A DNA stretch of 64,000 nt from a virus (lineage: Duplodnaviria; Heunggongvirae; Uroviricota; Caudoviricetes). Below are positions 12,010 to 62,469 of the stretch, in pieces; the first letter of the stretch is position 1; each line of letters starts with the position of its first letter. Location of the stretch: the IMG/VR virus record IMGVR_UViG_3300042890_003920; one strand, given 5' to 3'. The position numbers and the translations under genes were made by a program. The notes under the pieces are model-generated. The model ran no database searches. It had not been told where the DNA came from and saw only the letters and a list, made by a program, of their open reading frames with translations.

Positions 12010-12456
12010 ATGAAACATTTAAAAAAATTTAATGAAAGTTTAGAACCAGTTGAGATCGATGAGTTAAAAGACTTCTGTGAGACATCACTCGCTTATCTAT
12101 TAGATGATGGGTATCAAGTTAGTGTATATGAATCAAGATTTAAAGATGTATCTGTAAGAGATAAAGTAAAGTATCCTGAGAAAGAACATACAATTGTAAG
12201 TTTGGGTTTAAAAGGAAAAATGGGTTATAGGTTATTCGATTGGAATGATATAAAAGATTATTACATACCATTTCTTCAAATGTTAGTAAGAAGATATGAA
12301 TTACTACCTTTCGGAATGTATGATAAGATTTGTTATTTTAATACCGAAGGTGGTTTTAGATATTTATCATTAGATCAAGTTATAAATGATAGGGTTGGCT
12401 CAGAACTTGGTAGTCGTTTGTGGGGAATAAATATAATGATAGTAGATAAGATATGA
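12010..12456 (+). CDS. family-A protein (MKHLKKFNES…DFCETSLAYLLDDG…WNDIKDYYIPFL)
   Basis: true start at ATGAAACAT directly after TAATATATACATTATT motif; ORF-track N-extension rejected. Confidence 0.7.
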   Translation: MKHLKKFNESLEPVEIDELKDFCETSLAYLLDDGYQVSVYESRFKDVSVRDKVKYPEKEHTIVSLGLKGKMGYRLFDWNDIKDYYIPFLQMLVRRYELLPFGMYDKICYFNTEGGFRYLSLDQVINDRVGSELGSRLWGINIMIVDKI

Positions 12457-12893
12457 AACATTTGAAAAGATATAATGAAAGTTTACAACCTAATGAGGTT
12501 GACGAGTTAAAAGACTTCTGTGAGACTTCATTGGCTTATCTATTAGATGATGGATATAATGTTGATGTTTCTATAAGAAATTCAGTAGGGTATCCAGGAA
12601 ATAATCAAGTAATCGTAAGTTTGGGTTTACCTACATATAGTGAAAGTGGTTTACTGGATTATAAAAGGTTCCATTGGAATGATGTAAAAGATTATTACAT
12701 ACCATTTCTTCAAATCTTAGTAAGAAGATATGAGTTGCTGCCTTATAGAGGTGAGGGTTATGTTTATTTTAATGGTGAGATGGGATTTGACTATTTCTCA
12801 TTAGATGAAGTAATAGATGATACGGTCAGTGGTATGAATCACATTGGTAGTAGTTTATGGGGTATAAATATAAAAATAGTAGATAAGATATAA
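12453..12893 (+). CDS. family-A protein, recent tandem duplicate of previous
   Basis: high nucleotide identity of first about 100 bp to 12010..; ATGA overlap. Confidence 0.7.
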   Translation: MKHLKRYNESLQPNEVDELKDFCETSLAYLLDDGYNVDVSIRNSVGYPGNNQVIVSLGLPTYSESGLLDYKRFHWNDVKDYYIPFLQILVRRYELLPYRGEGYVYFNGEMGFDYFSLDEVIDDTVSGMNHIGSSLWGINIKIVDKI

Positions 12894-12958
12894 ACTATCT
12901 CCTTGAGACATATACACCCAGACTCAAACTTTTTAAAAATAATTTTAATATATACATT

Positions 12959-13735
12959 ATGAAATACTGTAGAAAACAAAGTGTAAGTTCAGGAAGAACT
13001 TTACGCTATATTAAAAGTTTTAATCAAACACTTGAGAACTACTCAACTGTTGCCAATACATTTAGAGGATTACGACCATCTATTAAAAATCTTGCCATAT
13101 TAACCGCACAGAACCCACATGGTGAGCAACATTCAAATGAGTTTAACAAATCTGCGAACCAAGAACTTGAAGAGGTTCTATCTAAAGCTAAATTAGGTTA
13201 TAAAAAGGTTAAAGGTTCGTATGTTCAAAAAGAGAAATCATTTATTGTTTTTAATATACCTTATGCAGTAGCTATAGAAATTGGTACAAGATTTAAACAA
13301 GATAGTATTATCTATGGTGAGATTAACGATAAACAAAGTTATGATGATGATGAATCAATGTTATTTAAAATTATAGGAACTGATCAAAGTAAGCCAGAAG
13401 AATATAAGAAAGTTTTGGCAGAAACTAGTGTTTTTGTTAGTAGAGATAATGCGGATGATTTTTATAGTGAGATTAAAGGTAGGAAATTTATATTACCATT
13501 TTATGATGTGATTGATCAATCTGATGATCCTACGATACTTAATATAAAAAAGGATTATACTGGAAGTAAATGGAAAGGTGGTAAAGCGGAACCTACATCA
13601 ACAACAACTTATCGACTTCCTGATTGGTTATTAAAATGGCAGCAAGATCAAAGGATAAAAGAACATGAGGAAAAACATTCAATGTACAATAAATCCAAAA
13701 AACCTTTCATTAGAAAGGTAACTGGTGATAACTAA
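12959..13735 (+). CDS. hypothetical protein, 258 aa
   Basis: ORF preceded by aattttaatatatacatt motif. Confidence 0.55.
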   Translation: MKYCRKQSVSSGRTLRYIKSFNQTLENYSTVANTFRGLRPSIKNLAILTAQNPHGEQHSNEFNKSANQELEEVLSKAKLGYKKVKGSYVQKEKSFIVFNIPYAVAIEIGTRFKQDSIIYGEINDKQSYDDDESMLFKIIGTDQSKPEEYKKVLAETSVFVSRDNADDFYSEIKGRKFILPFYDVIDQSDDPTILNIKKDYTGSKWKGGKAEPTSTTTYRLPDWLLKWQQDQRIKEHEEKHSMYNKSKKPFIRKVTGDN

Positions 13736-13749
13736 AAGTAAAGTATAAT

Positions 13750-15000: not shown

Positions 15001-15014
15001 AAATAAAGTATAAT

Positions 15015-15752
15015 ATGATACAATCTATAATAGGAACAAGTTTTACAGGAGGTTATAATCCACAAGGTCCATCATTTAGACTTATGTTTACAGATATAAG
15101 TTTTGCTAATACCCTAGTAGGGGATGCGTCAAATGTTAATGATTGGAATACATATTTAGATTTACCTCTTTTGGGTACACCTTTCACTAGTGTAAACGTT
15201 AGTGGTGATGAAGTGTCTTTGTATGGCGGAGTAGGTATTACATTAAAAACTTCTGCATTTACTATTAATCTAAAAAAAAATGAAGTTCCTTATTTAGTTT
15301 CTGTAGATGATGAAAGTGGAGTGATTGTGGAATTACAAGAAGAAACTTTTTCAAGTCAATCATTATTAACAACTGTATCTTTACCACAACTAATTACTGC
15401 AGATATTTTCTGTTTTAATGGTTGTGACAATTTAGCCATTATTAATTTACCACAGTTAACAACTGCAGGTGTTGGCTGTTTTAATACTTGTGACAATTTA
15501 GCCATTATTAATTTACCACAGTTAACAACTGCAGGTGCTGGATGCTTTGCTGGTTGTAGTTTAACAACAGTAACATTACCTCTCTGTACAAACTTAGGTG
15601 GCGGTGTTTTAAATGATAATGTGTTTTCAGACATAATTGGAAACACAATTTCTTTAACTATACCTGAGTCTTTAATGACTTGTAATTCAGGAAATCCAGA
15701 TGGTGATATTCAATACTTGCAGGCAAATAACACAGTAACAATAATAAGTTAG
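15015..15752 (+). CDS. BspA-type LRR protein, N-terminal paralog of 13750..15000
   Basis: identical first 16 aa and upstream aaagtataat; internal repeat LPQLTTAG.GCF..CDNLAIINLPQLTTAG. Confidence 0.6.
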   Translation: MIQSIIGTSFTGGYNPQGPSFRLMFTDISFANTLVGDASNVNDWNTYLDLPLLGTPFTSVNVSGDEVSLYGGVGITLKTSAFTINLKKNEVPYLVSVDDESGVIVELQEETFSSQSLLTTVSLPQLITADIFCFNGCDNLAIINLPQLTTAGVGCFNTCDNLAIINLPQLTTAGAGCFAGCSLTTVTLPLCTNLGGGVLNDNVFSDIIGNTISLTIPESLMTCNSGNPDGDIQYLQANNTVTIIS

Positions 15753-15757
15753 ATTCA

Positions 15758-15825
15758 TTTAACAGAACTCTTGTAGTTCTTCTTTGAAGGTGTCACCTAC
15801 TAAATGGTTTTAAATGTTTCATATA
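15758..15825 (-). pseudogene. remnant of the 5' end of a family-A gene
   Basis: sequence cagaactcttgtagttcttctttgaaggtgtcacctac…aaatgtttcat almost identical to 17342..17406 (start of 16870..17406), followed by a stop. Confidence 0.55.
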
Positions 15826-16869: not shown

Positions 16870-17406
16870 TTATTTAAAGAATGATTTTAATTTGGTTAGA
16901 ACAGATTTATTTTCTTGTTTATATCCATCTATTATAAATTCAAACTCTGTTATATAAGATTCTAAAACATCATCAGTATCAGTATCATAATAAAGACCTG
17001 ATTTTATATCATCATTGATTAGTTTATTTACTTGGTAAAATAATTCTGTTTTACGATGAGGCCAGTGTTGTCTAGCAGCTTCTAAGTCACGTGTTACTTC
17101 TATTATGACATCTTTTTTATTTTTACGAGTATGTCCCATTTGTCTAGCATATTGTTTAAGTTCATATTGATTAGTAAGTCTGGTTAAGAATGGTATCATA
17201 TGGTCTTTTATATCGGACCATAATCTAGGATTCTCATTTAATTCTAGTGTAAGTTTGAAACTTAAACCTAAACCACTTCTAACTAACGTTATAGAAATAT
17301 TTAATTCTTCATCTAATAGATAAGCTAGATTCATTTCACAGAAGTCTTGTAGTTCTTCTTTGAAGGTGTCACCTACTGCTTCATTGAATGGTTTAATATG
17401 TTTCAT
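16870..17406 (-). CDS. family-A protein (MKHIKPFNEA…DFCEMNLAYLLDEE…WSDIKDHMIPFL)
   Basis: family motifs. Confidence 0.65.
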   Translation of the reverse strand: MKHIKPFNEAVGDTFKEELQDFCEMNLAYLLDEELNISITLVRSGLGLSFKLTLELNENPRLWSDIKDHMIPFLTRLTNQYELKQYARQMGHTRKNKKDVIIEVTRDLEAARQHWPHRKTELFYQVNKLINDDIKSGLYYDTDTDDVLESYITEFEFIIDGYKQENKSVLTKLKSFFK

Positions 17407-17408
17407 AT

Positions 17409-18635
17409 TTAGAGAATGAATTTATTTACAATACTAGATATTTGACTGGCTCCATTTTTACATATATCATGGTGTTCTACTCCTGGTATAACTGTTAAAG
17501 ATGTTTTATCATTAGGAAAATTACCTTTGTCATCTTTTTCAGCTTGTTCCTTAGTAAGTACACCTGAGTCTGTTTTACCAGCTCTAATAATTAAACACTC
17601 AACACTATCATCTAACTTTTCTATTTCTTTTGGATCTCTCTGTAATGATCCAACCATACCAATCGCTTGACTGTGTAAGAAATCTATATTATATTTTCTA
17701 TCTCCATTTTCTATATCACAATAGTAGTTCTTTTTATCTGATGAATCAAATTTATCTTCTACTATCCAAACATTATTAGGATTTTTAATACCTGATGAAG
17801 TAATAATTGATTTGATGTATTCAATAGATGTTTTACCATCATTTGTTGGTATTTCTTCTTGCTTCACACCTTTTTTCCAAACTGATGATGGATTAGTTTT
17901 ACTAGGATAATGTTTACCTACTCTTTCTGTGAATGGTTCATCTATGAATTCAATTACAAGTTCTTTTGTTGCTCTCCATTTTTCATAATCTGATTGTAAT
18001 TTGAATTCAAAATCTGATAGTTTTGCTTTACTAAAATCAAAATCTGATGGATTTTTTTTATGTACTTCTGGTTTATATGTATATTTGAATTGAATAATTT
18101 CGTCTTTTGTTGGATTAGTTTGAGAATCTTTTTCATAAAAAGGAAAGGTAACACAATTATACCTTCTCATTGTGTTATTTTTCATTGTTGTACTTACATA
18201 TTTATCAGGTGCTATTGCATTAGGAGCGGCAGCATCTATACATATAAATTTACCTTTGAAATCTGATCCTAATTCTTTAATTATCCAAAATCCAAAAGTT
18301 GTACCCATTGAAAATCCTAGAATAGATAAATTAGGATATGATTTTAATTGTTTTGCGATTTCCTTACATCTATCTTTACCATTATCTTTAACGTTCTCAT
18401 CATATGAAAATGTTATTAAGTTAAATGTTTCTTTTAACAGAGAAGCAAGTACCTCGTAATCATCTATTGGATTACCACCACCACCTGGAATTAAAAGAAG
18501 TGTTGGTTTATTTTTATCATTATCTGATTCTATTGGATAAGGTTGAATAATAAATTTCTCAGGTGATAATTTTTCTTTATTATCTTCTAATATAAGTCTA
18601 AATTGTTTATATAACTTTAAGTGTTTCATAATCAT
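17409..18635 (-). CDS. alpha/beta-hydrolase-fold protein with family-A N-terminus (MIMKHLKLYKQF)
   Basis: GFSMG nucleophile-elbow motif, LLLIPGGGGN; 408 aa. Confidence 0.55.
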   Translation of the reverse strand: MIMKHLKLYKQFRLILEDNKEKLSPEKFIIQPYPIESDNDKNKPTLLLIPGGGGNPIDDYEVLASLLKETFNLITFSYDENVKDNGKDRCKEIAKQLKSYPNLSILGFSMGTTFGFWIIKELGSDFKGKFICIDAAAPNAIAPDKYVSTTMKNNTMRRYNCVTFPFYEKDSQTNPTKDEIIQFKYTYKPEVHKKNPSDFDFSKAKLSDFEFKLQSDYEKWRATKELVIEFIDEPFTERVGKHYPSKTNPSSVWKKGVKQEEIPTNDGKTSIEYIKSIITSSGIKNPNNVWIVEDKFDSSDKKNYYCDIENGDRKYNIDFLHSQAIGMVGSLQRDPKEIEKLDDSVECLIIRAGKTDSGVLTKEQAEKDDKGNFPNDKTSLTVIPGVEHHDICKNGASQISSIVNKFIL

Positions 18636-18643: not shown

Positions 18644-18868
18644 TTATTCTAATTCATCAAGAAATTTTTTATAGTCAAACTTAATCTTCTCTTTTTTGAA
18701 TTGTTTAACCATATCATTGGCTATCTCTATTCTATTTTCTTTATCTTTGACTTTCTTTAGTATATCAATTATACCTGATACCATTTGGTAATAGTTATTA
18801 TTACCAAGCTCTGCTTTTATTTCAGATTTAGATTCTTTTACTTGTGAGTATGTTTTTAAATGTTTCAT
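18644..18868 (-). CDS. small protein with MKHLKTYSQ N-terminus
   Basis: ORF 74 aa; phage-type motif taatttaatatataaact upstream. Confidence 0.5.
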   Translation of the reverse strand: MKHLKTYSQVKESKSEIKAELGNNNYYQMVSGIIDILKKVKDKENRIEIANDMVKQFKKEKIKFDYKKFLDELE

Positions 18869-20207: not shown

Positions 20208-20286
20208 AAATAAAAAACTTTTTATGTATATATTAAAATAAAATCAGTATAAATGATTTTAAATATCTTATTTTTATATATACTTT

Positions 20287-20901
20287 ATGAAATACTTAAA
20301 ATCATTTAATGAAGGTTCTACTACGACTGATGTAGATTATTATAAATCCGCTATACATTACTTCAATAATAATTTGAATAATGATAGAGCATTAGAATAT
20401 ATCAATAAAGCCATTGAGTTATCAGATAGAAAAAGTAATCCATACTATTTCGCTTTAAAACAAATGATTGAGGAAAAAGGACCTGAACCAAAGTTTGAAA
20501 GTAATGAGCAACAGATAGAAGCTTTAAAAGATTTATGTGATACTAATCTAGCTTATCTAAAAGATGATAATTTCATTGTAAGGGTTGTTCCTTCTAGACC
20601 TGATAGTTTCTATATATTTATTGGATCAGATGGATTTAATCCAAGTGGTGAAAGATATTATTTTAGTTGGTTATCTGTAAAGAATCATTTAATACCATTC
20701 TTTCATTACCTACTAAAAGATTTTAAGATACAAGATAATCCAAAGGGTACTAATAACAGAGGTGTATCATTTGTTAGTTATGGTACTTTTAATGATACTA
20801 ATGAGTATGTTAAGGTTGATCAAATCTTAAATGATGAGATAGAAGATGATAAACAAATAGCGGGTATATCTATTTATATTAAGTCGGAATACTTTATTTA
20901 A
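20287..20901 (+). CDS. divergent family-A protein (MKYLKSFNEG … LKDLCDTNLAYLKDD … LSVKNHLIPFF)
   Basis: family motifs with an inserted segment. Confidence 0.6.
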   Translation: MKYLKSFNEGSTTTDVDYYKSAIHYFNNNLNNDRALEYINKAIELSDRKSNPYYFALKQMIEEKGPEPKFESNEQQIEALKDLCDTNLAYLKDDNFIVRVVPSRPDSFYIFIGSDGFNPSGERYYFSWLSVKNHLIPFFHYLLKDFKIQDNPKGTNNRGVSFVSYGTFNDTNEYVKVDQILNDEIEDDKQIAGISIYIKSEYFI

Positions 20902-30886: not shown

Positions 30887-31471
30887 ATGAAACATTTGAA
30901 AACATTTGATGAGATTACCGAATCTTATAATAAACCAAGAGCTGGTGGTAAGAAACGCTGGTCGGTCAAATATAAGAAGTCAATAAATTGCTCTAATGCA
31001 AAGGGGTTTTCTCAAAAGCAGTATTGTAAGAGGAAAAGAAAAGGTGGTTCTTATAAGAATGAGTCTGTTGAATCTGTGATGGGTGGTTTAATTCAAAAAG
31101 TTGGTAAGGTTATTGAAGGTGTTGATGAATTGTGTGAACAACATTTAGTTTACTTACAGGATGATGGGTTTAAATATTTCATTGATATAAATGAAGATCT
31201 AAACAGTGATTTATATAATCAAGGTGATGTTATCTTTATTTTAGAGAGAAATCGAGAAGAATTTTCTTGGGATCAGGTCAAGGATAGGTTTATACCATTT
31301 TTGATTATGTTGAAAAGGGATTTCAAACCGTTATCAGATATTGAATTCGCTTTGGGTACTAACTGGAGGTATGCGACTAATAATGAGAAGTTTGAAATAA
31401 ATCTTCTTATAAATGATGCTATTGATTCGTATAGTAACATAGTAGAAATAATTATAAAGATAAACGTATAA
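30887..31471 (+). CDS. family-A protein with basic insert (MKHLKTFDEI … CEQHLVYLQDDG … FSWDQVKDRFIPFL)
   Basis: family motifs; atatatactta motif upstream. Confidence 0.6.
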   Translation: MKHLKTFDEITESYNKPRAGGKKRWSVKYKKSINCSNAKGFSQKQYCKRKRKGGSYKNESVESVMGGLIQKVGKVIEGVDELCEQHLVYLQDDGFKYFIDINEDLNSDLYNQGDVIFILERNREEFSWDQVKDRFIPFLIMLKRDFKPLSDIEFALGTNWRYATNNEKFEINLLINDAIDSYSNIVEIIIKINV

Positions 31472-31472: not shown

Positions 31473-31982
31473 TTATATATCTAATTTTACTTGATTTTTC
31501 TTTACCTTTATAATAACACCAATACTTATCAAATCTGGATCTGGTGTCCACTTATAATATATATGATCCTTCCAATAACCTTCTGAATCAAATACATCAT
31601 CATTAATGACTCTGGCATAACTGAAATTTTTACTAACATTTACAAATGAATAATCGTTCTTTTGACGGTATCTAAATCTAACACTTGGTTCACGTGAATC
31701 TACATCACCATCGAAAAAAGTACCTATATCATATCTATTAGATAATAATTGTAAGAAAGGAATATAATAATCCTTTACATCATCCCATTTAAAAAACTCT
31801 CTACCATTATTCTTTGCTAAAAAAATACCAAACTGTCCCGTAGTTGCCCTTGCACGTGGATCGTCACCGCCCCTAATAGTAACGTTGAAGCTCTCATCCA
31901 TTAGATAAGCTAATGATGATTCACAGAAGTCTTGTAGGTCTTCTTGGGTTACTCCCTCGTTAAATCTTTTCAAATGTTTCAT
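31473..31982 (-). CDS. family-A protein (MKHLKRFNEG…DFCESSLAYLMDES)
   Basis: family motifs. Confidence 0.65.
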   Translation of the reverse strand: MKHLKRFNEGVTQEDLQDFCESSLAYLMDESFNVTIRGGDDPRARATTGQFGIFLAKNNGREFFKWDDVKDYYIPFLQLLSNRYDIGTFFDGDVDSREPSVRFRYRQKNDYSFVNVSKNFSYARVINDDVFDSEGYWKDHIYYKWTPDPDLISIGVIIKVKKNQVKLDI

Positions 31983-32374
31983 TTTAGAAAGAATACTATT
32001 TTTTCGACAATCTTTTCTTGTGGAAGATTTTCTAATTCATCATATGAAAGATAAAGTTCTTTGCTATAATTACCCACAAAATTTCGATTTGAAACTTGTA
32101 CTATAATGAATTTATCAGAACCATCTTCTAAACTATTTATTTCATAAACATTATTAAATCTATGTAAGAATGGTATAATCTGATCTTTGATTTCTGACCA
32201 CGGTCTACCGTGTCCATTAGATTGGTAAAGGTATAGTGTAACAAATAAATCTGATCGGTCATTATCAATTCTAACTTCTAATCCTTCATCCATTAGATAA
32301 GCTAGATGGGTTTCACAATAATCTTTTAGATCATATTCGTTTATACTTTCATTAAATCTTTTCAAATATCTCAT
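31979..32374 (-). CDS. family-A protein (MRYLKRFNES…DYCETHLAYLMDEG)
   Basis: family motifs. Confidence 0.65.
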   Translation of the reverse strand: MRYLKRFNESINEYDLKDYCETHLAYLMDEGLEVRIDNDRSDLFVTLYLYQSNGHGRPWSEIKDQIIPFLHRFNNVYEINSLEDGSDKFIIVQVSNRNFVGNYSKELYLSYDELENLPQEKIVEKIVFFLK

Positions 32375-37699: not shown

Positions 37700-38110
37700 A
37701 TGAAGTATTTAAAAAGTATTTTTGAGTCTAGGAGTGAAAAAGATCTTACTGAGTTACAAGATACTTGTGAGATGTATCTAGCTTATTTAATTGATAATGG
37801 ATTTCATGTTGAGATACAAGATTTTGATATAATAGATATAGACATTAGAAATGATTTAGATGCTAATGAGGAAGAAACTTTTAAATGGTCGGACGTAAAG
37901 GATCATGTGATACCTTTAATAACTTTATTTAAGAATGATCATTTTAGATATAAATTAAAAGAGACTGTTTTATTCTATAAGGGTAAGCCAGATGATATGG
38001 TGAGTATTTCTAATTTTAATTCTGGTAGACGCCACATAGGATTAGATGAGAATTTAGAATCAATAAAAGAAGATCAAGAAATAATTTGCTTAACAATAAG
38101 AGTTCGATAG
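37700..38110 (+). CDS. family-A protein
   Basis: MKYLKSIFES…DTCEMYLAYLIDNG…WSDVKDHVIPLI. Confidence 0.65.
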   Translation: MKYLKSIFESRSEKDLTELQDTCEMYLAYLIDNGFHVEIQDFDIIDIDIRNDLDANEEETFKWSDVKDHVIPLITLFKNDHFRYKLKETVLFYKGKPDDMVSISNFNSGRRHIGLDENLESIKEDQEIICLTIRVR

Positions 38111-38111: not shown

Positions 38112-38558
38112 ATGAGATATTTAAGAAAATTTGAGAATTTACAGGATAGATTTACCACTGATGAATTGTCTGAAATAAGGAATAAGTGTGAGATGTATCT
38201 GGCTTATTTAGTTGATAATGGATTTGATATTGATATAGATAATACAGAAAGTACTCATAGTTGTATAGATATAACACAATCTAATACACTGGATGCTAAA
38301 CTACATTTTACTGAAACTGGTGATGGTGTATCTTGGTCAGAAATAAAGGATAATATTATTCCTTTAATTTCTTTATTTATGAAAGGTGACTTTGATTGTC
38401 AATTATTAAATATAGAATTTTTCTTTTGGAGAAAAAGACCTATACTAGTGGAAGCTGAAGATTTTGAGGATTTTATTAATGATAGACCTCATTCATTTTC
38501 ATTGAAAGATTTAGAAGGTAATGGTATATCGTGTATAACATTAGAAATAAAGAAATAA
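38112..38558 (+). CDS. family-A protein
   Basis: MRYLRKFENL…NKCEMYLAYLVDNG…WSEIKDNIIPLI. Confidence 0.65.
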   Translation: MRYLRKFENLQDRFTTDELSEIRNKCEMYLAYLVDNGFDIDIDNTESTHSCIDITQSNTLDAKLHFTETGDGVSWSEIKDNIIPLISLFMKGDFDCQLLNIEFFFWRKRPILVEAEDFEDFINDRPHSFSLKDLEGNGISCITLEIKK

Positions 38559-38560: not shown

Positions 38561-39031
38561 ATGAGATATTTAAAAAAATTTTTTGAGAGTTTTGAAGAAA
38601 ATGTATTACAAGACTTCTGTGAAACCCATCTAGCTTATTTGTTAGATGAAGGATATGAATTATATATTGGTGATGAACGTGGTAAGAAAACAATCAGTAT
38701 AACTATACCGAGTGATGTAAGTGATGAAGATGGTGAGTATGATACTGGTGAATTTGAATGGAATAATGTTAAAGATCATTACATAACATTTTTAACACAT
38801 TTGAATAATAAGTATAACGTTGTTCCTTATTTTGATCAAAACTCTTTTGTAGCGTACGATTGGTTTACGAGAGATGAAAAAGATGTCGTCGAATTTTTTA
38901 CTAACTCTGCCGGAGTGAAGCCAGGAGAAGAACAATATAGACATTATTATTCAGTACAAGAAGTACTTGATGATAAACCTTCAGAATTAGATAGTTGTTT
39001 ATATGAAATAACTGTAAAGGTGCAATTATAA
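38561..39031 (+). CDS. family-A protein (start MRYLKKFFES)
   Basis: family motifs; ORF-track N-extension rejected. Confidence 0.65.
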   Translation: MRYLKKFFESFEENVLQDFCETHLAYLLDEGYELYIGDERGKKTISITIPSDVSDEDGEYDTGEFEWNNVKDHYITFLTHLNNKYNVVPYFDQNSFVAYDWFTRDEKDVVEFFTNSAGVKPGEEQYRHYYSVQEVLDDKPSELDSCLYEITVKVQL

Positions 39032-48637: not shown

Positions 48638-48720
48638 ATTAGTTGATTTTATATTTATAAATGCAAATATACAAAAAATAATATTTTTTTTAATATATAC
48701 ATTATAAAAAAAAGTAAAAA

Positions 48721-50578: not shown

Positions 50579-51019
50579 ATGAAATATTTAAAACCATTTA
50601 ATGAATCACTTAAAGAAGAAACTGAATTGTTACAGGAGTTCTGTGATCTTAACTTGGCTTATCTTGTTGATGACGGTTTTAAAACTACAATAGAATCTGA
50701 TAATTATTCAAAAAGTCTTTACTTTACTAAAAACTATGATGGTAGGTTGTATTATAGTGATACATTCGAGTGGGATGAAATCAAGAATACGTTTATTCCT
50801 TTTCTGACATTATTAGAAAGAAGATATGGTGAGTACTATAAATTAGGTGAAAGTAGATTTAGATTACTTACGATAACGTATATTGAGTTTAATGATGCCG
50901 GTGAGAGAAATGGATTAAACACTGACAATATTTCATTAGATGATATAATAGATGTCAATGATGGTAATGTAGGTATTGATTCAATCGTATGTATAAAAAT
51001 TACATTAAGAAAGAAATGA
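50579..51019 (+). CDS. family-A protein
   Basis: MKYLKPFNES…EFCDLNLAYLVDDG…FEWDEIKNTFIPFL. Confidence 0.65.
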   Translation: MKYLKPFNESLKEETELLQEFCDLNLAYLVDDGFKTTIESDNYSKSLYFTKNYDGRLYYSDTFEWDEIKNTFIPFLTLLERRYGEYYKLGESRFRLLTITYIEFNDAGERNGLNTDNISLDDIIDVNDGNVGIDSIVCIKITLRKK

Positions 51020-51438
51020 TGTATTTAAAACGTTTTAATGAAGCTTCTTTCTTACCAAAAGACATAAGTGAACTGCAATATTTTTGTGAGAATTATTTAG
51101 CTTATTTACTGGATGAAGGATTTGGTATTCGTGTTAGACATGGTTCTCGTGAAGATAGAGCTCGTATAGAGTTTTATAAAGATGATGTACACTTTCCAGT
51201 TCCTTTTAACTGGAATGATGTTAAAGATCATTATATTCCTTTTTATCAAATGCTATCTAAAGAATATGAGATTAGTACAATGAGAAATTGTTCTGTTAAG
51301 TTTGAATATAGAAAACCTGCTAAACAATTATGGGAAACAGAAGCAAAATGGTTCACAGAAGAAGAAATAATAAATGATGAAGTAGGTGACTTGGGTAGTT
51401 ATGTTGGAGTCATTTCAATTTTCTTAGACAATAATTAA
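51016..51438 (+). CDS. family-A protein (start MMYLKRFNEAS)
   Basis: ATGATG overlap with previous stop; family motifs. Confidence 0.65.
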   Translation: MMYLKRFNEASFLPKDISELQYFCENYLAYLLDEGFGIRVRHGSREDRARIEFYKDDVHFPVPFNWNDVKDHYIPFYQMLSKEYEISTMRNCSVKFEYRKPAKQLWETEAKWFTEEEIINDEVGDLGSYVGVISIFLDNN

Positions 51439-52517: not shown

Positions 52518-52937
52518 ATGAAGTACTTGAAAACATTTAACGAAGGTTTATCCGATTTAACTTATTTAGAGATTTTAGATTTTTGTGAAGAAAACTTAGC
52601 TTATTTAATGGATGATGGTTTTAATGTTAGTGTACAGTCTGATAGATTTATGGATGAAATAGATTGGGAAGTAAGATTGAGAAATGATGAGAATCTTAAA
52701 TGGGATTATATTGAAAATCATTTAGTTCCGTTTTTTATACATTTAGATAAAGAATTTGAACTATGTAATATATCCAGTACTCATTCAGAATTAGAATTTT
52801 TTGTACGAGAATATGGTATAAATCACGGTTATAAGTGGCTTTCTATAAAAGATTTACTAAATCATGAAGGTGATTATGATAAATTAGTCGGTAATGTAGT
52901 AGAAAGTATAACATTTTATATAAAAAGTAGAAAATAA
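52518..52937 (+). CDS. family-A protein
   Basis: MKYLKTFNEG…DFCEENLAYLMDDG…LKWDYIENHLVPFF. Confidence 0.65.
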   Translation: MKYLKTFNEGLSDLTYLEILDFCEENLAYLMDDGFNVSVQSDRFMDEIDWEVRLRNDENLKWDYIENHLVPFFIHLDKEFELCNISSTHSELEFFVREYGINHGYKWLSIKDLLNHEGDYDKLVGNVVESITFYIKSRK

Positions 52938-53362
52938 TGAGATATATTAAGACATTTGAAGCAGATAATTGGTGGGTTGATAAGGTTGATAAAACTGAAT
53001 TAAAATCATTTGCGGAGTCATATTTAGCATATTTAATGGACGAAGGTTTTGTAATAGGTATAAATTTAGATCGTCATGAAGATGATGCTGCGGTTGATTT
53101 ACATTTAACTAATCCAGATAATACGATATATGAGAACGATATACCTTTTTTATGGGAAGATATAAAAGATCATTTTATTCCGTTTATGACAATGTTTAGT
53201 AAGAAATATAGTTTTTCTGTTTTGAAGTTATATGCTTCTCCTGGTTCTGAGGTTAGATCATTTAGATCGGGAACTGATAGTTTATTCCGTTTATTATCCG
53301 ATAGATTTGAAGTTGAAGAAGAGTTAAGAGAAATAGAAATAAGTAATATAAGAAGAGTATAA
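52937..53362 (+). CDS. family-A protein
   Basis: MRYIKTFEAD…FAESYLAYLMDEG…WEDIKDHFIPFM. Confidence 0.6.
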   Translation: MRYIKTFEADNWWVDKVDKTELKSFAESYLAYLMDEGFVIGINLDRHEDDAAVDLHLTNPDNTIYENDIPFLWEDIKDHFIPFMTMFSKKYSFSVLKLYASPGSEVRSFRSGTDSLFRLLSDRFEVEEELREIEISNIRRV

Positions 53363-53823
53363 TGAAATATTTAAAAAGATTTAACGAGTCTCGTCATGAA
53401 ATACTTACCAATCCTAAAAGATTTACTTTTGAATTTCAGGAAGGGTTAAAAGATTTCTGTGAAACACATTTAGCTTATTTAGTTGATGATGGTTATTCAA
53501 TTAAGGTTGCTACTAATACTATGTCATTAAAAAGATTTGATGAACAAAATGATAATCAAATTTATGCTAGTTTAGTTGATTGTGGTGAAGAGATTGTTGA
53601 TACTATAGATGATCCACGTAACTTTAATTGGGATAATATAAAAAATAGTTTCATACCATTTATCCAACACTTATCTAAACAATATAATATAGGTAAAATT
53701 TATGTGTATGGATATTCACAGAATGGTGAGGAAATGTTATCTTATACTTATACACTACAACAAGTATTAGATGATGATAATATTGCACCAGTAATTTACT
53801 CTATATTTTTAAGGATTGACTAA
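53362..53823 (+). CDS. family-A protein
   Basis: MKYLKRFNES…DFCETHLAYLVDDG…FNWDNIKNSFIPFI. Confidence 0.65.
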   Translation: MKYLKRFNESRHEILTNPKRFTFEFQEGLKDFCETHLAYLVDDGYSIKVATNTMSLKRFDEQNDNQIYASLVDCGEEIVDTIDDPRNFNWDNIKNSFIPFIQHLSKQYNIGKIYVYGYSQNGEEMLSYTYTLQQVLDDDNIAPVIYSIFLRID

Positions 53824-56679: not shown

Positions 56680-57369
56680 ATGACATTAAATGAAAAAGAT
56701 AAACAAAGATTGTTATTATTCTTAGAAGACAATGAATTAGACTATACTCCAATTGATAATGGTATAATTCGTTTTCATCTTATTGCTGAGGATGGTATGA
56801 CTTTTTATGTAATAAACAACGAAGATGAGTATTTAATCACCAAATATAACAAGGATAAAGACAGACCAGGGTCAGTTCCATACGAAAACTATCAATTTAA
56901 GACACTTTCAGAGGTTTTAGAGCAATTAAAGTTCTATGACAATAATTTACCTAAAGTATACTGGGAACCTACATTAGAGTCAATACAAATAGGTTTTGAT
57001 AAAGATAATCATATAGAGGATTGGTATTCATCATTTATTAAAGATGATTGTTATAAAGTTGAAGAAGATGATCAATATAAATACTTTTCTTATACAAATG
57101 AAGGTTATAAACCAGAATTGATTTCACCATTTAATACTTTACACGAAGTAAGTGCTTTTAATGATTTGCAATTAGAAAAGATTGATAAGTTATACTTTGA
57201 AGTACATCCAATTTCTTGTGTAAAGAAAAGGGAAAGTTATTTAGTAAAGTTATTATGTAATAATGATAACATTTTCAAAGAGTATATAAACTATAAAGTT
57301 TATAAAGAAAAGGGATTAAAACTAATGTTGAATACTTTATTCAATGATATGGAAAAATATAAATTATAA
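56680..57369 (+). CDS. hypothetical protein, 229 aa
   Basis: ORF; ttaatatataatct motif upstream. Confidence 0.55.
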   Translation: MTLNEKDKQRLLLFLEDNELDYTPIDNGIIRFHLIAEDGMTFYVINNEDEYLITKYNKDKDRPGSVPYENYQFKTLSEVLEQLKFYDNNLPKVYWEPTLESIQIGFDKDNHIEDWYSSFIKDDCYKVEEDDQYKYFSYTNEGYKPELISPFNTLHEVSAFNDLQLEKIDKLYFEVHPISCVKKRESYLVKLLCNNDNIFKEYINYKVYKEKGLKLMLNTLFNDMEKYKL

Positions 57370-57866
57370 TGAAGTATTTAAAAACATTTGAAACAATTGA
57401 CTTTAATGACATTTTTAGTTTAAATGGATCAAGAGCTAAAAGAGAAGAACTTAAAGATTTCTGTGAGACATATTTGGCTTATCTTATGGATGATAGTATA
57501 AAAGAATTGAAAGTTGGTAAACCAACACTATTACAAACTGAAAAATATGTTTGTTATAATGTTGAGATATACTTTAATAAAAGTGTACACTGGAACCAAA
57601 TTAAAGATCAATTTATACCTTTTCTTCAAATGATTCAAAAAGAATATGTTTTTAGAGAAGATAATATAGGAAGAATGTGTTCTATTGCATGGAGAGTAGA
57701 AGATAGTTTGGTTACAATACCTAAACAATATACTTTAAAAGAATTATTAGAAGATAAAATAGAAACTAATTTTACTTTTGAGTTAGGTTCTGATCGCAAA
57801 GCATCTATACAGGGTAATGTTGGTTCAATAAAATTAGATATATTAGAAGAAGTTAGTAAAGGCTAA
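57369..57866 (+). CDS. family-A protein
   Basis: MKYLKTFETI…DFCETYLAYLMDDS…VHWNQIKDQFIPFL. Confidence 0.65.
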   Translation: MKYLKTFETIDFNDIFSLNGSRAKREELKDFCETYLAYLMDDSIKELKVGKPTLLQTEKYVCYNVEIYFNKSVHWNQIKDQFIPFLQMIQKEYVFREDNIGRMCSIAWRVEDSLVTIPKQYTLKELLEDKIETNFTFELGSDRKASIQGNVGSIKLDILEEVSKG

Positions 57867-58188: not shown

Positions 58189-58268
58189 ACTTTTAATTTT
58201 AGAACTACAAATATACAAACTTATTTTAAAGTGTGAAAATATAAAAGTATAATTTAATATATACTTTT

Positions 58269-58604: not shown

Positions 58605-58606
58605 AT

Positions 58607-58787: not shown

Positions 58788-59522
58788 TTAGACTAAATCT
58801 CGTAGTATGATTGACTTCTTTGCTAATGGTTCTTTATAAACCATTCTTAAAGTAATTCTTTTAAAATTTTGATTTATAAATGTTGGTGATTGCCATTGTG
58901 TTATGGTACTAATAAATGTGAAATATTGTGAAAATACTTCAGACATTTTTTCAAGCATTGTTTGTAATTCATTTTGACTATGATCTGTTTTATACTTAAA
59001 TGAAAAAATAAACTGATTTACATATTGATTGGATCCACCTTGTAAAATACCAGATTCTCTGGTTCTATGAATTGCTTGTTCAAAACTCCATTCATTTACA
59101 TCTAATCCTAATGTTCTAAATAAATTTATTTTACTAATTACAATTGATGATGGATTTACTTTAAACACTGTTGTATTTGTATTAAACCAAAATGTAATCA
59201 TCACTGATGTATCACTGTTATTCCAAATCTTAGTAGATGTTTGTAATCCTTCTTTCATGTTAGTAAGTTGATTACAACCAGTTATAATGTTTTCTAATAG
59301 TGTATAGTAAGTAATTATTTTATTAGAGAAGTCGTGTATATCTAAACTAGTATCTGGTAGTATTCTAGGAAAACTAACTAGTACAATTCCACCAGTTTTT
59401 TTCTCGATTACTATATTTGGATATTCATCTATTTGATATGCAAATACTAATTGTATATCTTCTATTAGTTCTGCTAATGGATCAACACGTTTTTTTGCTT
59501 CAAAAATCTTTAAATATTTCAT
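58788..59522 (-). CDS. hypothetical protein with MKYLKIFEAK N-terminus, 244 aa
   Basis: ORF. Confidence 0.55.
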   Translation of the reverse strand: MKYLKIFEAKKRVDPLAELIEDIQLVFAYQIDEYPNIVIEKKTGGIVLVSFPRILPDTSLDIHDFSNKIITYYTLLENIITGCNQLTNMKEGLQTSTKIWNNSDTSVMITFWFNTNTTVFKVNPSSIVISKINLFRTLGLDVNEWSFEQAIHRTRESGILQGGSNQYVNQFIFSFKYKTDHSQNELQTMLEKMSEVFSQYFTFISTITQWQSPTFINQNFKRITLRMVYKEPLAKKSIILRDLV

Positions 59523-60347: not shown

Positions 60348-60382
60348 AAAAATACCACTCATTTGAGTGGTATTTTTTTTTA
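60346..60382 (+). terminator. rho-independent terminator (near-copy of 58607..58635 hairpin)
   Basis: ataccactca-ttt-tgagtggtat followed by T-run. Confidence 0.8.
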
Positions 60383-60393
60383 ATATATAGTAT

Positions 60394-60843
60394 ATGATAT
60401 ATATAAAACTCTTTGATAATTTTAATCCAAATCACTATATTATAAGTTCTGATAAAATAGACGAAAGTTTATTGAATGGAATTGATGCAATACTTGCACC
60501 TATCGGTGATGATGGTTACAAGTACAATCATTTTATTTATGATAAAGACAAAGTTCATAATGATAATAGAAGATTAGAGATAAGTATTTATGTAGAAGGT
60601 GAAGATACTTTTACGGAAAAATCTAATATTATTATCGGTTCTGAAATAAAAGAAGCGGTACTTACTTTACTTGATTTCTTGAAAAGAAGAACTGGGAATG
60701 AAGCAAGTATTTATGTTTGGGATCATAATGATTATCAATTCATTGATATGAAAGATACTGATACACACGGTCTTGAAGATCTTGATGATTTAAGAGAGGA
60801 ATATGCGGAAACAGATTCTATGAAAATAGTTGTATTATTATGA
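60394..60843 (+). CDS. hypothetical acidic protein
   Basis: ORF 149 aa; ttaatatatagtat motif abuts ATG. Confidence 0.5.
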   Translation: MIYIKLFDNFNPNHYIISSDKIDESLLNGIDAILAPIGDDGYKYNHFIYDKDKVHNDNRRLEISIYVEGEDTFTEKSNIIIGSEIKEAVLTLLDFLKRRTGNEASIYVWDHNDYQFIDMKDTDTHGLEDLDDLREEYAETDSMKIVVLL

Positions 60844-61250
60844 AGCATTTAAAAATATATGAAGCATTTGATGTTTTTAAAGACAAATTAGATGAATTAC
60901 AAGACTTTTGTGATACATATTTGGCTTATATGACAGATAAAGGTGTAGTTTTAACAGTTACTCCTAATAGTCGTTTATCTAGTACTATATTTGTACTTTC
61001 TGTTAGGTCTGTTGAAAGTAGAGATTTTGAATGGAATGACATAAAAGATTATTTCATACCATTTTTAGAAGTACTTACTAATAAAATTGGTCGTGGAAAC
61101 ATCATGACAAATTCTGATCCAAATCATGAATTTAAGTTTGTAAACAATAGAGGTGTATTTTATCGTAGTTTAGAAGATGTTATCGCTGATAAAGTTCCTA
61201 ATATTATGCCTTCAATAGAATCATTATCGTTCGCTATTAAGTATTATTGA
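60840..61250 (+). CDS. family-A protein
   Basis: MKHLKIYEAF…DFCDTYLAYMTDKG…FEWNDIKDYFIPFL. Confidence 0.65.
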   Translation: MKHLKIYEAFDVFKDKLDELQDFCDTYLAYMTDKGVVLTVTPNSRLSSTIFVLSVRSVESRDFEWNDIKDYFIPFLEVLTNKIGRGNIMTNSDPNHEFKFVNNRGVFYRSLEDVIADKVPNIMPSIESLSFAIKYY

Positions 61251-61532
61251 TAGTTTTTCATTTCTAATTTCTTGTAAGGCAAATGCTTCTAACCCTTCTA
61301 ATTCAACCAATTCAGGTGAATGTTTTATTCCTTTTTCATCTATTATAACTGTGAAGTGTGTACCATTTTTTTTGAATGTTATAAGTTTCATTGTACCATT
61401 CCAACCATATGATGATTTCACACCTAATTGTTTATCAACAAAATTTAATAAAATCGGTGAGGTTTCTTCGGTAAGCCAATTGTAAATTATCATATTAAAA
61501 TTTGTGTGATACTGGTATATTCTGACCAACAA
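61224..61532 (-). CDS. family-B-tail protein (…LQEIRNEKLSIILNSER)
   Basis: tail motif. Confidence 0.5.
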   Translation of the reverse strand: MLVRIYQYHTNFNMIIYNWLTEETSPILLNFVDKQLGVKSSYGWNGTMKLITFKKNGTHFTVIIDEKGIKHSPELVELEGLEAFALQEIRNEKLSIILNSER

Positions 61533-61953
61533 TTGCTAAAACACTTTTCTCAAATCTATTACCATCATTATCAATAAATATAACTTGATGAATACCTGGG
61601 GTTACTTTTACTTTCATTTTTGGTGTATCTCCTAACACTTTACCATCCAAAACCACTTTTGATGTTGGAGTTGAACTTATATTTAAGTAACCTGTTGGTT
61701 CTGATCTTAAATATTTTAGTAGAAGATTACCTATTCCCATAATAATTAGACCGAGTAGTCCAATCGCAATGGCACCAAGTACAATTACTAAATAAATTGC
61801 AACACCGATCCATAAAGGTGAAGTGACCCACCACCAAGACCAAGTCGCGACTTGTCCTACTCCACCTAGTTTAAGACCTAGAAATAAAAGAAAAAGTAAT
61901 CCAGCAAAGCTGATACCACTTGATTGTTGTTGTTTTGTTATAGTTTTCTTCAT
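61495..61953 (-). CDS. membrane protein (multiple TM helices)
   Basis: ORF 152 aa. Confidence 0.5.
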   Translation of the reverse strand: MKKTITKQQQSSGISFAGLLFLLFLGLKLGGVGQVATWSWWWVTSPLWIGVAIYLVIVLGAIAIGLLGLIIMGIGNLLLKYLRSEPTGYLNISSTPTSKVVLDGKVLGDTPKMKVKVTPGIHQVIFIDNDGNRFEKSVLAIVGQNIPVSHKF

Positions 61954-62001
61954 TTATATTTTATTTATTTTTTTGAAAAAGTTGAATTTAATATATACTT
62001 A

Positions 62002-62469
62002 ATGAAGTATTTAAAAAGATTTAATGAATCGGTAGATTTTGAAGAAAAGTTAAGAGATTTTTGTGAAACACATTTAGCTTACCTATTAGATGAGGGATTT
62101 GAAGTAGTTTTAAACGATTTAGATGAAACTTATGATTGTGAGATTACTATTAAAAGAGAAGATCAAAGAACATTTACTTGGGATGAAGTTAAAGATCATA
62201 TAGTTCCTTTTATAATACATCTTAACAAAGAATATGAATTATATAAAAGTGATGACTGTGATGATGATGAATATTTACCTGTAAAAGTTGGAGATGTTGG
62301 TTATATTCAATCTGAACTTTCTTCTTTATACGAACCATTCTCAATCGAAAATATTTCTGATGAGAGTTATGAACCATTCTTAGGTTACAAAATTGGACCT
62401 GATGAGTATAAAAATGATATGGGTACAAGATTATCTTCTATTGTTATTTACGCTGCTCTCGCAAACTAA
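62002..62469 (+). CDS. family-A protein (start MKYLKRFNES)
   Basis: family motifs; aatttaatatatactta abuts ATG; ORF-track N-extension rejected. Confidence 0.65.
   Translation: MKYLKRFNESVDFEEKLRDFCETHLAYLLDEGFEVVLNDLDETYDCEITIKREDQRTFTWDEVKDHIVPFIIHLNKEYELYKSDDCDDDEYLPVKVGDVGYIQSELSSLYEPFSIENISDESYEPFLGYKIGPDEYKNDMGTRLSSIVIYAALAN

Follow-up and report, generated by a model that had tools for sequence, protein, structure and literature searches.

Family A in the window

Why should dozens of genes in a single phage, many of them unrelated in the rest of their sequence, begin with the same ten or so codons? The question is raised by a 64,000-nucleotide stretch of DNA, here called the window, whose source is an uncultured low-GC jumbo phage with a genome of roughly 380-430 kb, and in which the shared opening peptide, or tag, is most often found on the members of one paralogous family, family A. 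An iterative HMM search covering every ORF of the window, plus every stop-to-stop segment 30 aa or longer, recovered exactly 19 members of this family, with E-values of about 2e-44 to 2e-26 (Table 1). A sequence-only reading of the same DNA had placed 18 copies, and each of these coordinates was correct, as was the assumption that the genes at 12010, 38561, 51016 and 62002 start inside longer mechanical ORFs. The remaining copy, at 58788, had been taken for a tagged gene with an unrelated body; the tag is indeed present, but the body is that of a divergent full member. Alignment A1 shows the three motif blocks that had been described and also the C-terminal beta-strand, which appears again, at residues 137-147, in an AlphaFold2 model of the 12010 product (pLDDT 84.7). 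The architecture of the family consists of an N-terminal tag of ~10 residues, a variable linker and a small alpha/beta domain of ~125 aa that is usually acidic, 17 of the 19 members having a pI of 4.2-5.6. Residues 1-12 of the model form a low-confidence coil ahead of the confident domain, and the tag is predicted to be disordered. Pairwise identity among the window copies ranges from 13 to 66% (median 29%), and together they occupy 9,144 bp, or 14.3% of the window. Since at least eight further members lie on a contig that reaches 10 kb beyond the left edge of the window, 19 copies is a lower bound, and the phage holds at least 19 and probably at least 27.

Table 1. Family A copies, tag-bearing genes outside the family and a promoter-like motif in the window
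Position	Strand	Feature	HMM E-value, alignment
12010..12456	+	family A, 148 aa, first of tandem pair; AATATATAC 6 nt upstream of ATG	4e-40, A1
12453..12893	+	family A, 146 aa, translationally coupled to the 12010 gene (ATGA overlap)	6e-42, A1
16870..17406	-	family A, 178 aa, C-terminal extension	3e-35
20287..20901	+	family A, 204 aa, ~65-aa insert between tag and core domain; TATATATAC 3 nt upstream	3e-35, A1
30887..31471	+	family A, 194 aa, basic ~50-aa insert after tag, pI 8.3	3e-32
31473..31982	-	family A, 169 aa	2e-39
31979..32374	-	family A, 131 aa; TATATATAG 3 nt upstream	2e-36
37700..38110	+	family A, 136 aa, first of tandem triplet	1e-34
38112..38558	+	family A, 148 aa, middle of triplet; missing in 94%-identical relative L131	1e-32
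38561..39031	+	family A, 156 aa	7e-43
50579..51019	+	family A, 146 aa; dN/dS 0.03 against L005	2e-41
51016..51438	+	family A, 140 aa	2e-44
52518..52937	+	family A, 139 aa, first of tandem triplet; TATATATAC 3 nt upstream	1e-41
52937..53362	+	family A, 141 aa	3e-32
53362..53823	+	family A, 153 aa; counterpart in L005-L007 is a 300-aa two-domain protein	5e-37
57369..57866	+	family A, 165 aa	6e-33
58788..59522	-	family A, divergent 19th member, 244 aa, pI 8.5; absent from L005 (indel)	5e-27
60840..61250	+	family A, 136 aa	5e-38
62002..62469	+	family A, 155 aa, most acidic copy, pI 4.2; AATATATAC 3 nt upstream	3e-36
2154..2705	-	non-family protein, 183 aa, tag variant MKYVKLFEEF	
2756..3160	-	non-family protein, 134 aa, tag variant MKYVKLFENF	
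3438..3941	+	tagged non-family protein (MKHIKEFNQINEG), 167 aa	
15793..15822	-	nine-codon leftover of a tagged gene, MKHLKPFSR*	
17409..18629	-	tagged protein, 406 aa, GFSMG motif, possibly alpha/beta hydrolase	
18644..18868	-	small tagged protein, 74 aa	
51448..51621	+	small basic tagged protein, 57 aa	
58269..58604	+	tagged protein, 111 aa; AATATATAC 4 nt upstream	
48692..48700	+	late-promoter-like motif AATATATAC, 20 nt upstream of the collagen-repeat tail-fibre gene at 48721	

The N-terminal tag as a separable module

The tag has the consensus M-[KR]-[HY]-[LIV]-[KR]-x-[FY]-(N)-E-[SAG], spans ~10 residues and opens all 19 family members and seven unrelated genes. Amino-acid composition predicts 0.02-0.04 tag-matching ORF starts in the window, against 25-27 observed. 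About 10 tag-only genes had been proposed, a number that does not stand; those at 2154, 2756, 3438, 17409, 18644, 51448 and 58269 are confirmed. The alpha/beta hydrolase proposed at 17409 is weakly supported, by a GFSMG nucleophile-elbow motif at residue 105 and a 15-bit carboxylesterase match in NCBIfam, the product having no match in Pfam. Beyond these genes, the segment M-[KR]-[HY]-[LIV]-[KR]-x-[FY] is conserved both in the 19 copies of the window and in 120 of the 120 homologs listed, and at least 40 unrelated proteins also have it; within the first 46 loci examined, ~90 non-family ORFs start with the tag, 42 of them distinct at a length of at least 100 aa.

The tag is a separable module. 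One portal-adjacent gene of the head operon has 10 tagged orthologs (MKHLRKFEEL followed by DYSTY...) and 10 untagged ones (M-NYSTY...), so that for at least one protein the tag is dispensable. Constraint falls on the peptide, that is, at the protein level: synonymous codon use within the tag (AAA/AAG, CAT/CAC, TAT/TAC, GAA/GAG) is similar to that of the gene bodies, and K/R swaps are present. Leu-4 is encoded by TTR codons only, and the tag codons are AT-rich, AAA being the commonest second codon. The tag is essentially phage-restricted, as the DNA pattern encoding it gave 39 matches in IMG/VR, whereas 596 Gb of bacterial and archaeal genomes yielded 2, both of them on very small MAG contigs. 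Tagged cargo includes ART-PolyVal (1.2e-12), a C39 peptidase-GNAT fusion, a methyltransferase, NFACT-R and a possible hydrolase, and on domain content it looks like a set of effectors.

Resemblance to the capsid-targeting signal of T4

The capsid-targeting signal of T4 is 10 aa long, with residues 4 and 7 required for targeting and residues 8 and 10 for processing, and gp21 cleaves after L/I-x-E (PMC9026906); its sequence is given as MKTYQEFIAE (PMC8442874). The hydrophobic positions of the tag are likewise 4 (L/I/V) and 7 (F/Y). Of 115 tagged proteins, 96 have their first Glu at residue 8 or 9, and hardly any have it earlier. This Glu has F, L or I two residues ahead of it (P3) and is followed by S, A or G. 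As a sequence motif, [FLIVY]-x-E is found within residues 6-13 of 95 of the 115, versus 31% of controls, and 67 of these 95 have S, A or G at P1'. The Glu and the hydrophobic residues do not constitute independent evidence, because they are parts of a single conserved motif. In two- and three-domain fusions [FILVMY]-x-E-[SAGTN] is kept in 37 of 42 internal linkers, compared with 13 of 42 for MKxLK, which suggests that the half of the tag bearing the putative processing site persists independently in linkers. The likeness to the T4 signal is a resemblance of pattern, and it is possible that the conserved N-E-S could have a structural role instead of forming a cleavage site.

The parallel with IPI, IPII, IPIII and Alt of T4 includes a peptide of ~10 residues that starts with MK, is hydrophobic at positions 4 and 7 (F7 is identical) and continues with a hydrophobic-x-Glu and then a small residue. 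In both systems one peptide is carried by otherwise unrelated proteins, the cargo includes an ADP-ribosyltransferase (T4 Alt is annotated as a capsid-packaged ADP-ribosyltransferase), and a late-type AT-rich promoter motif apparently drives the genes. However, the mature bodies have no sequence homology to IPI, IPII, IPIII or Alt, as judged by a search with one member of phage records that include T4, and most of family A is acidic, in contrast to the highly basic internal proteins of T4 (PMC8442874). In addition, tagged genes number dozens per genome and the paralogs at least 27, against ~4-5 signal-bearing proteins in T4, and the Glu is at 8 or 9 rather than 10.

The promoter-like motif of the window, (A/T)ATATATA(C/G), lies upstream of the family clusters and of both tail-fibre genes, with 23 matches compared with 12.6 expected, and none of 100 shuffles reached 23. 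In a related T4-like clade, 45 of 54 distinct regions upstream of the capsid gene contain ATATATAG, and this motif resembles the T4 late promoter TATAAATA (PMC1524935). At the first gene of most clusters the motif ends 3-5 nt short of the ATG; the T4 rule (motif at -13 to -6) would put the start of transcription at or inside the start codon, and its role at the family genes is therefore uncertain. Translationally coupled internal genes that do not have the motif still carry the tag.

Head-assembly genes and comparison with other phage systems

In related tag-bearing phages the portal, protease and capsid protein are of T4 type. A head module in which Portal_T4 (4.9e-57) and a Gp23 capsid protein (1.2e-26) accompany a prohead protease and a scaffold-like protein is present on at least 10 tag-bearing contigs of related lineages, up to 483 kb in length, and tagged genes are located within the portal-protease-capsid module. 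The protease matches Peptidase_S80 above cutoff and, more weakly, S77, the family of T4 gp21; its N-terminus, MKPVLIVENS, has I-V-E where T4 gp21 has L-I-E. The strongly family-bearing L027, L028/L031 and L035 of IMG/VR are not among the contigs on which a head module was seen, and portal, protease, scaffold and capsid genes of the window lineage were not found in the 64-kb window or in ~40 kb more of that lineage. What ties the window lineage to T4 machinery is therefore the identity of the tag, the shared promoter-like motif, a T4_Y16D homolog and one distant family A member that adjoins a T4-like large terminase.

Giant phages of the phiKZ/201phi2-1/SPN3US group resemble the present phage in possessing paralog families whose number varies among relatives, namely the PF12699 'family A' and, in SPN3US, a 'family B' of ~20 members. 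The seven members of our family A that were searched gave no match to PF12699, the inner-head family, or to any other Pfam family. In SPN3US the families of head-protein paralogs have 2-20 members, and the paralogs share N-terminal propeptides that bear a protease motif, x-x-Glu (PMC5694885). An N-terminal x-x-Glu motif together with an S80-type prohead protease, here in related contigs, is common to both. However, those propeptides are mostly longer than 100 aa, compared with ~10 aa here, and those families were defined by virion proteomics, whereas family A is defined here from sequence. A further comparison is offered by polyvalent proteins (Iyer et al., 2017), such as P1 DarB, for whose domains co-delivery with DNA has been proposed (PMC5512222). 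ART-PolyVal is present on at least one tagged protein, and effectors delivered with DNA to pre-empt defence would be the shared strategy; polyvalent proteins are giant multi-domain polypeptides, whereas the effectors proposed here would be many, small, single-domain and individually tagged.

A model for tagged proteins and its alternatives

The sequence-only reading had offered several functions, of which a targeting or packaging tag is the best supported, as the tag is modular, phage-restricted and T4-signal-like and co-occurs with T4-type head-assembly genes. The model that we favor, and to which we give an even chance, proposes that family A proteins are internal head proteins, made late, targeted by the tag, probably trimmed and then injected. 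By way of the tag, the protein would attach to the scaffolding core while the prohead assembles, as with the T4 capsid-targeting sequence, and a gp21/S80-type prohead protease, cutting after hydrophobic-x-Glu, would then take the tag off. The mature protein would remain in the head and enter the host along with the DNA, such that the paralogs and the unrelated proteins with the same tag may together make up a large capsid-delivered arsenal. Docking, cleavage, packaging, injection and an anti-defence activity of the bodies are what we infer, and an effector or anti-defence role for the bodies is plausible. A broader proposal is made more tentatively, at somewhat less than an even chance: that a portable 10-residue capsid-targeting tag marks a very large, unrecognised set of injected proteins in an uncultured, global, T4-related clade, many of whose members are jumbo phages; that this set comprises dozens of families and about one-sixth of the genes of the window; and that family A, with 1,482 clusters and 27 or more copies in each genome, is its largest cargo and a new fold-level anti-host class. 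If the tag is a capsid-targeting signal, a sequence rule could read the injected repertoire directly from metagenomic phage genomes, where until now virion proteomics of cultured phages has been needed. Large uncultured phages would then have taken the internal-protein strategy of T4 an order of magnitude further, the 1,482-cluster family and at least 40 other families would be candidate first-strike anti-defence effectors, and new short packaging tags might become available for engineered protein delivery by phages.

An alternate scenario, which we regard as unlikely, is that tagged proteins are not packaged and act in the cytoplasm of the infected cell, the tag being read, for example, by a chaperone of phage or host, by a protease of the ClpXP/ClpAP type (as an N-terminal degron governing protein lifetime) or by a localisation factor. 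A modular, disordered tag constrained at the protein level would agree with a short linear recognition motif of any kind; two tag-bearing loci encode authentic ClpP homologs (CLP_protease, 2.9e-55), and both the acidity of the bodies, set against the basic T4 internal proteins, and the occurrence of untagged orthologs agree with this scenario. However, it would leave unexplained the position-by-position likeness to the T4 signal (including the Glu and the small residue), the survival of x-N-E-S in internal linkers, the presence of tagged genes within the portal-protease-capsid operon, and the motif common to family, tail-fibre and capsid genes; further, no ClpP or chaperone gene was found in the window. 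Even if packaging is wrong, a conserved, phage-restricted 10-residue N-terminus common to many unrelated proteins would constitute an unexplained recognition signal.

Less probable again is that the common N-terminus is mainly a by-product of recombination, whereby a cassette of promoter, ATG and first codons was duplicated and new bodies were recombined behind it, the 5' end providing the homology. The acidic proteins would then be intracellular anti-defence decoys, possibly DNA mimics. This could account for shifts in copy number by unequal recombination of tandem copies (at 53362, at 38112 in L131 and at 12010/12453), for the restriction of Leu-4 to TTR codons, for the tight linkage of the promoter-like motif to the ATG and for the acidity of most members. 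It is highly improbable that the first codons are instead an RNA or translation-initiation element, for example of leaderless or near-leaderless late mRNAs, with no signal in the protein. The 3-5 nt spacing of motif and ATG at the first gene of most clusters would fit such an element, as would AT-rich tag codons and the prevalence of AAA as second codon. However, synonymous variation is as free in the tag as in the bodies, K/R swaps are conservative, coupled internal genes keep the tag without the motif, and it is particular residues (H/Y in position 3, F in position 7 and E in position 9), not base composition, that are conserved.

Distribution and evolution of family A

Family A has no PHROG or PDB relatives, no Pfam family scored above noise in searches with seven members, and tblastn with one member against 50,697 phage records, T4 included, returned zero matches; neither the family nor the tagged cargo was found in any cultured relative. 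Two homologs are named Rsd (regulator of sigma D) by JGI, a name that is rejected, as NF008723 reached 14.8 bits where the cutoff is 139; the all-helical fold of Rsd is also at odds with the alpha/beta model. Metagenomes contain 1,482 family A clusters at 50% identity, and other uncultured lineages have arrays that are similar or denser, one example being L138, with 15 copies within 20.8 kb. An expansion on this scale had been called unusual for a phage, which holds in part: head paralog families of giant phages reach 20, and the L138 array is denser. The further suggestion of a diversifying function is unsupported at the timescale examined, over which orthologous copies are under purifying selection, with dN/dS of 0.03-0.62 in related phages (neighbour median 0.17). 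The variable feature among these phages is instead copy number, with a fusion or deletion at 53362, loss of the 38112 gene in L131, and either one copy or two at 12010/12453.

Membership and properties of family A

An HMM built on seven copies and iterated over the window ORFs converges on exactly 19 members (E-values 5e-44 to 2e-26), which include all 18 copies listed in the sequence-only reading and one more, the gene starting at 58788. The family alignment has four conserved blocks, namely the N-terminal MK[HY]LKxFNE, a helix with L.DFCE..LAYL.D.G, the stretch W..[IV]KD..IPF and a C-terminal strand. Family members occupy 14% of the window and are acidic in 17 of the 19 cases (pI 4.2-5.6), and the copies are old, with pairwise identities of 13-66% (median 29%). 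Since at least eight more members lie in a tandem array beyond the window's left edge, the genome holds at least 27 copies. The AlphaFold2 model of a family protein is confident (pLDDT 84.7, pTM 0.80) and shows a two-layer alpha/beta domain, ahead of which 12 residues form a low-confidence coil. Searches of Pfam, PHROG, NCBIfam and PDB returned no relatives and no convincing fold match, and the family is missing from all 50,697 deposited phage genomes and from every curated library; the name given by JGI, 'regulator of sigma D', is spurious. Metagenomic homologs form 1,482 clusters at 50% identity (953 at E <= 1e-10), two- and three-domain fusions among them. Arrays in other lineages equal or exceed that of the window in density, as in the third-lineage contig L138 (72.9 kb), where 15 copies lie within 20.8 kb.

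The N-terminal tag

The most informative feature of the family is its N-terminal peptide of about ten residues, M[KR][HY][LIV][KR]x[FY](N)E[SAG], here called the tag. It begins 26 window genes, against a chance expectation of 0.02-0.04, and is kept in 120 of 120 among the family homologs listed. The DNA pattern encoding the tag, used to find related loci, matched 39 IMG/VR stretches on contigs of up to 483 kb. Across bacterial and archaeal genomes totalling 596 Gb, its matches were limited to two very small MAG contigs, both from one lake study: JBAXBM010000300.1 (1.6 kb, Omnitrophota), which carries a strong family member (E 4e-31), and JBAWYI010000139.1 (2.5 kb, Actinomycetes). Both are probably mis-binned phage fragments. 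No paper naming the tag together with phage was found in the literature.

Outside the family, the loci fetched contain about 90 tagged ORFs. These encode 42 or more distinct proteins, 100-824 aa in length, including an ART-PolyVal ADP-ribosyltransferase, a C39 peptidase fused to a GNAT acetyltransferase, a methyltransferase, a zinc-ribbon protein and an NFACT-R RNA-binding domain. A gene adjacent to the portal gene has ten tagged orthologs (MKHLRKFEEL followed by DYSTY...) as against ten untagged ones (M-NYSTY...); the tag is a discrete add-on. Synonymous codon use in the tag equals that of the gene bodies, K/R swaps are present, and copies within tandem arrays keep the tag without an upstream motif; the constraint acts at the protein level. 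A short ORF within the window (MKHLKPFSR*; see table) has the appearance of a tagged gene decayed to its 5' end. In one lineage, comprising the IMG/VR loci L017, L018, L034 and L037, many tagged proteins end in K[FY]N[IL] (KFNI, KYNI, KFNL or KYNL), which may constitute a second terminal signal.

Likeness to the T4 capsid-targeting sequence

In phage T4 the internal proteins open with a ten-residue signal, MKTYQEFIAE (PMC8442874). Targeting depends on its residues 4 and 7 and processing on residues 8 and 10, and the gp21 protease cleaves after L/I-x-E (PMC9026906). The internal proteins of T-even phages are described as diverse defence proteins whose only common feature is the targeting signal (PMC3012670). 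The tag likewise begins MK, has a hydrophobic residue at position 4 and F or Y at position 7. In 96 of 115 tagged proteins the first Glu falls at position 8 or 9, and an earlier Glu is very rare; the residue two places before this Glu (P3) is F, L or I, and the residue after it S, A or G. Judged from sequence, the layout of the tag is that of the T4 capsid-targeting sequence. In multi-domain family proteins, [FILVMY]-x-E-[SAGTN] is kept in 37 of 42 internal linkers (INES, LNES, VNES, LKES and ITEA are examples) and MKxLK in only 13, as predicted for a putative processing site, although N-E-S may have a structural role. Family A differs from the T4 internal proteins in being acidic.

Head-assembly genes associated with the tag

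The pooled large ORFs of tag-bearing loci include a Gp23 capsid protein, a T4-like large terminase and a baseplate wedge protein, and the loci also carry accessory genes typical of T4-like phages. A query with this capsid protein returned 80 head-module loci of a related T4-like clade, of which 7 lie on contigs already known as tag-bearing, and a probe made from the protease N-terminus reached at least three further tag-bearing contigs with a head module, including ones of 242 and 483 kb. In one such locus, L051, the order is Portal_T4 (4.9e-57), protease, scaffold-like protein, Gp23 capsid (1.2e-26) and a tagged NFACT-R gene. The protease of this locus scores 29.1 bits against Peptidase_S80 (cutoff 23.4) and 21.8 bits against S77, the T4 gp21 family, which is under the S77 cutoff of 27; the protease begins MKPVLIVENS in 76 loci, with I-V-E in place of the L-I-E of T4 gp21. 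Of the 80 loci, 38 contain strictly tagged ORFs, 53 in all; two of these genes are conserved parts of the head module, and a distant family member directly adjoins a T4-like terminase. Within this clade, small or homing-endonuclease-like genes lie on the opposite strand between the portal and protease genes, and the protease and scaffold-like protein are encoded separately or as a single ORF (see table). For the lineage of the window itself, no head genes were found off either window edge or around the family copies sampled on contigs of 180-433 kb, and BLASTP of the window proteins against the head-module loci gave only two non-family homologs.

A promoter-like motif shared with virion genes

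The motif (A/T)ATATATA(C/G) has 23 matches in the window against 12.6 expected, with none of 100 shuffles giving as many as 23; for the exact form AATATATAC the count is 10, where 3.0 would be expected. Of the 23 copies, about 16 stand in sense orientation shortly before a gene start, and what they precede includes both tail-fibre genes, seven family clusters and three further tagged genes. The motif is similar to the late promoter of T4, TATAAATA (PMC1524935). In the T4-like clade, 45 of 54 distinct regions upstream of the capsid gene have ATATATAG some 25-30 nt before it. Because the motif is common to both, the family appears to be co-expressed with virion genes. Before the tail-fibre genes it stands 20-27 nt from the ATG, and at each family or tagged cluster it ends only 3-5 nt from the ATG of the leading gene; if the T4 rule applied (motif at -13 to -6), the latter spacing would either leave the mRNAs leaderless, or nearly so, or place the transcription start within the start codon.

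Positions of features in the window and in the loci compared with it
Locus	Position	Strand	Feature
Window	2102-2110	-	(A/T)ATATATA(C/G)
Window	3185-3193	-	(A/T)ATATATA(C/G)
Window	3406-3414		(A/T)ATATATA(C/G)
Window	8863-8871		(A/T)ATATATA(C/G)
Window	11995-12003		(A/T)ATATATA(C/G)
Window	12947-12955		(A/T)ATATATA(C/G)
Window	20226-20234	-	(A/T)ATATATA(C/G)
Window	20275-20283		(A/T)ATATATA(C/G)
Window	30875-30883		(A/T)ATATATA(C/G)
Window	32378-32386	-	(A/T)ATATATA(C/G)
Window	48692-48700		(A/T)ATATATA(C/G)
Window	52506-52514		(A/T)ATATATA(C/G)
Window	58256-58264		(A/T)ATATATA(C/G)
Window	60382-60390		(A/T)ATATATA(C/G)
Window	61990-61998		(A/T)ATATATA(C/G)
Window	12959-16824		DUF3293, two LRR proteins and HD-domain gene; block missing from L002, where the flanking family genes adjoin
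Window	15793-15822	-	Nine-codon ORF MKHLKPFSR*, just downstream of the HD-domain gene
Window	28862-29182	-	106-aa protein, 88% identical to an L137 gene with the precomputed Pfam label T4_Y16D (T4-specific family)
Window	33025-34128	+	Thymidylate synthase, 367 aa
Window	58788..59522	-	19th family member
L017	8962-10029	+	Example from the K[FY]N[IL] lineage
L051	7665-9760		Separate protease and scaffold-like protein (233 and 465 aa)
L057	7639-9756		Protease and scaffold-like protein as a single ORF (705-708 aa)
L129	7631-9757		Protease and scaffold-like protein as a single ORF (705-708 aa)
L134	1-1788	-	Phage protein of >630 aa with Por_Secre_tail (T9SS C-terminal sorting) domain and faint cohesin match
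L138	4669-11762	+	Tandem run of 13 family genes, denser than in the window; sole interruption a Pterin_4a gene
L256	17260-21807	+	Tandem array of at least eight family members, one two-domain, 5-10 kb beyond the window's left edge

Selection and copy number

Against the related locus L005, dN/dS of the seven true orthologs is 0.03-0.62 (neighbour median 0.17); against the more distant L002 the values are 0.34-0.50 (neighbour median 0.21). Family orthologs are under purifying selection between related phages, and diversifying selection is rejected by these ratios at the timescale tested. Close relatives nevertheless differ in copy number: L005 is without the 58788 copy, in L005-L007 the 53362 copy has two domains, the 38112 copy is missing from the 94%-identical L131, and L002 has a single gene where the window has the 12010/12453 pair. 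With orthologs conserved in this way and copy number variable, the family expands by gene gain and loss, each copy being kept once gained, and does not behave as a hypervariable cassette. The block at 12959-16824 is an accessory-gene indel with family copies at its borders.

A model for the tagged proteins

Of the readings considered, the data best support a model in which family A and the other tagged proteins are predicted to be internal head proteins made late in infection. The tag would direct each protein to the head, where it would probably be trimmed after the tag Glu, and the internal proteins would then be delivered along with the DNA. Head-protein paralog families of 2-20 members in the giant phage SPN3US, some of which share N-terminal propeptides containing a protease motif (PMC5694885), offer a precedent for the scale of family A. 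We consider the model about equally likely to be right or wrong, because packaging and cleavage are predictions, because a head module of the window lineage itself was looked for and never found, and because only tag identity, the shared motif and the T4_Y16D homolog connect that lineage with T4-type phages. The acidity of the family, unlike T4 internal proteins, and a promoter-like motif so near the ATG of family genes that its role there is doubtful weigh in the same direction. Were the model correct, and we judge this evenly balanced, T4-style targeting of internal proteins would be the known element, and the much larger scale and the new cargo family the new ones.

Other explanations for the tag are each less probable. 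It may serve a different recognition function, which would equally accommodate constraint on the peptide and its presence on unrelated proteins, and which we regard as unlikely beside the T4-like layout and the tagged genes of the head module. Slightly less likely again is a by-product of duplication and recombination, with which the changes in copy number are in keeping. An RNA-level element, to which the motif so close to the start codons might speak, is highly improbable, as codon usage largely rejects a nucleotide-level explanation.

The phage, its relatives and its host

The window is 95% coding at about 30% GC, with approximately 143 non-overlapping ORFs. Identifiable genes encode thymidylate synthase, FolD, RpiB, several methyltransferases, an SPFH protein, LRR proteins, an HD-domain protein, a DUF4832/DUF4874 protein, an HNH/endonuclease VII-like protein and two collagen-repeat tail-fibre proteins; most remaining genes are unknowns, and head genes and tRNAs are absent from these 64 kb. 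Metagenomic contigs of 378, 415 and 433 kb share about 90-94% nucleotide identity with the window, which identifies the source as an uncultured jumbo phage, roughly 380-430 kb in size. No cultured relative was matched by tblastn of one family member and two tagged cargo proteins against 50,697 phage records, or by megablast of 10 kb of the window. The closest thymidylate synthases are those of Flavobacterium phages (62%); the best match is phage immuto, but this phage has a family A polymerase and a different gene content and was rejected as a relative. The T4_Y16D homolog is among the few links of the window lineage to T4-type phages. In L134, from a related family-bearing lineage, the T9SS sorting domain hints at a Bacteroidota host. 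The thymidylate synthase of the window matches its 266-position Pfam model end to end and contains an insertion of roughly 100 aa; its counterpart in the 433-kb relative L131 has 344 aa.
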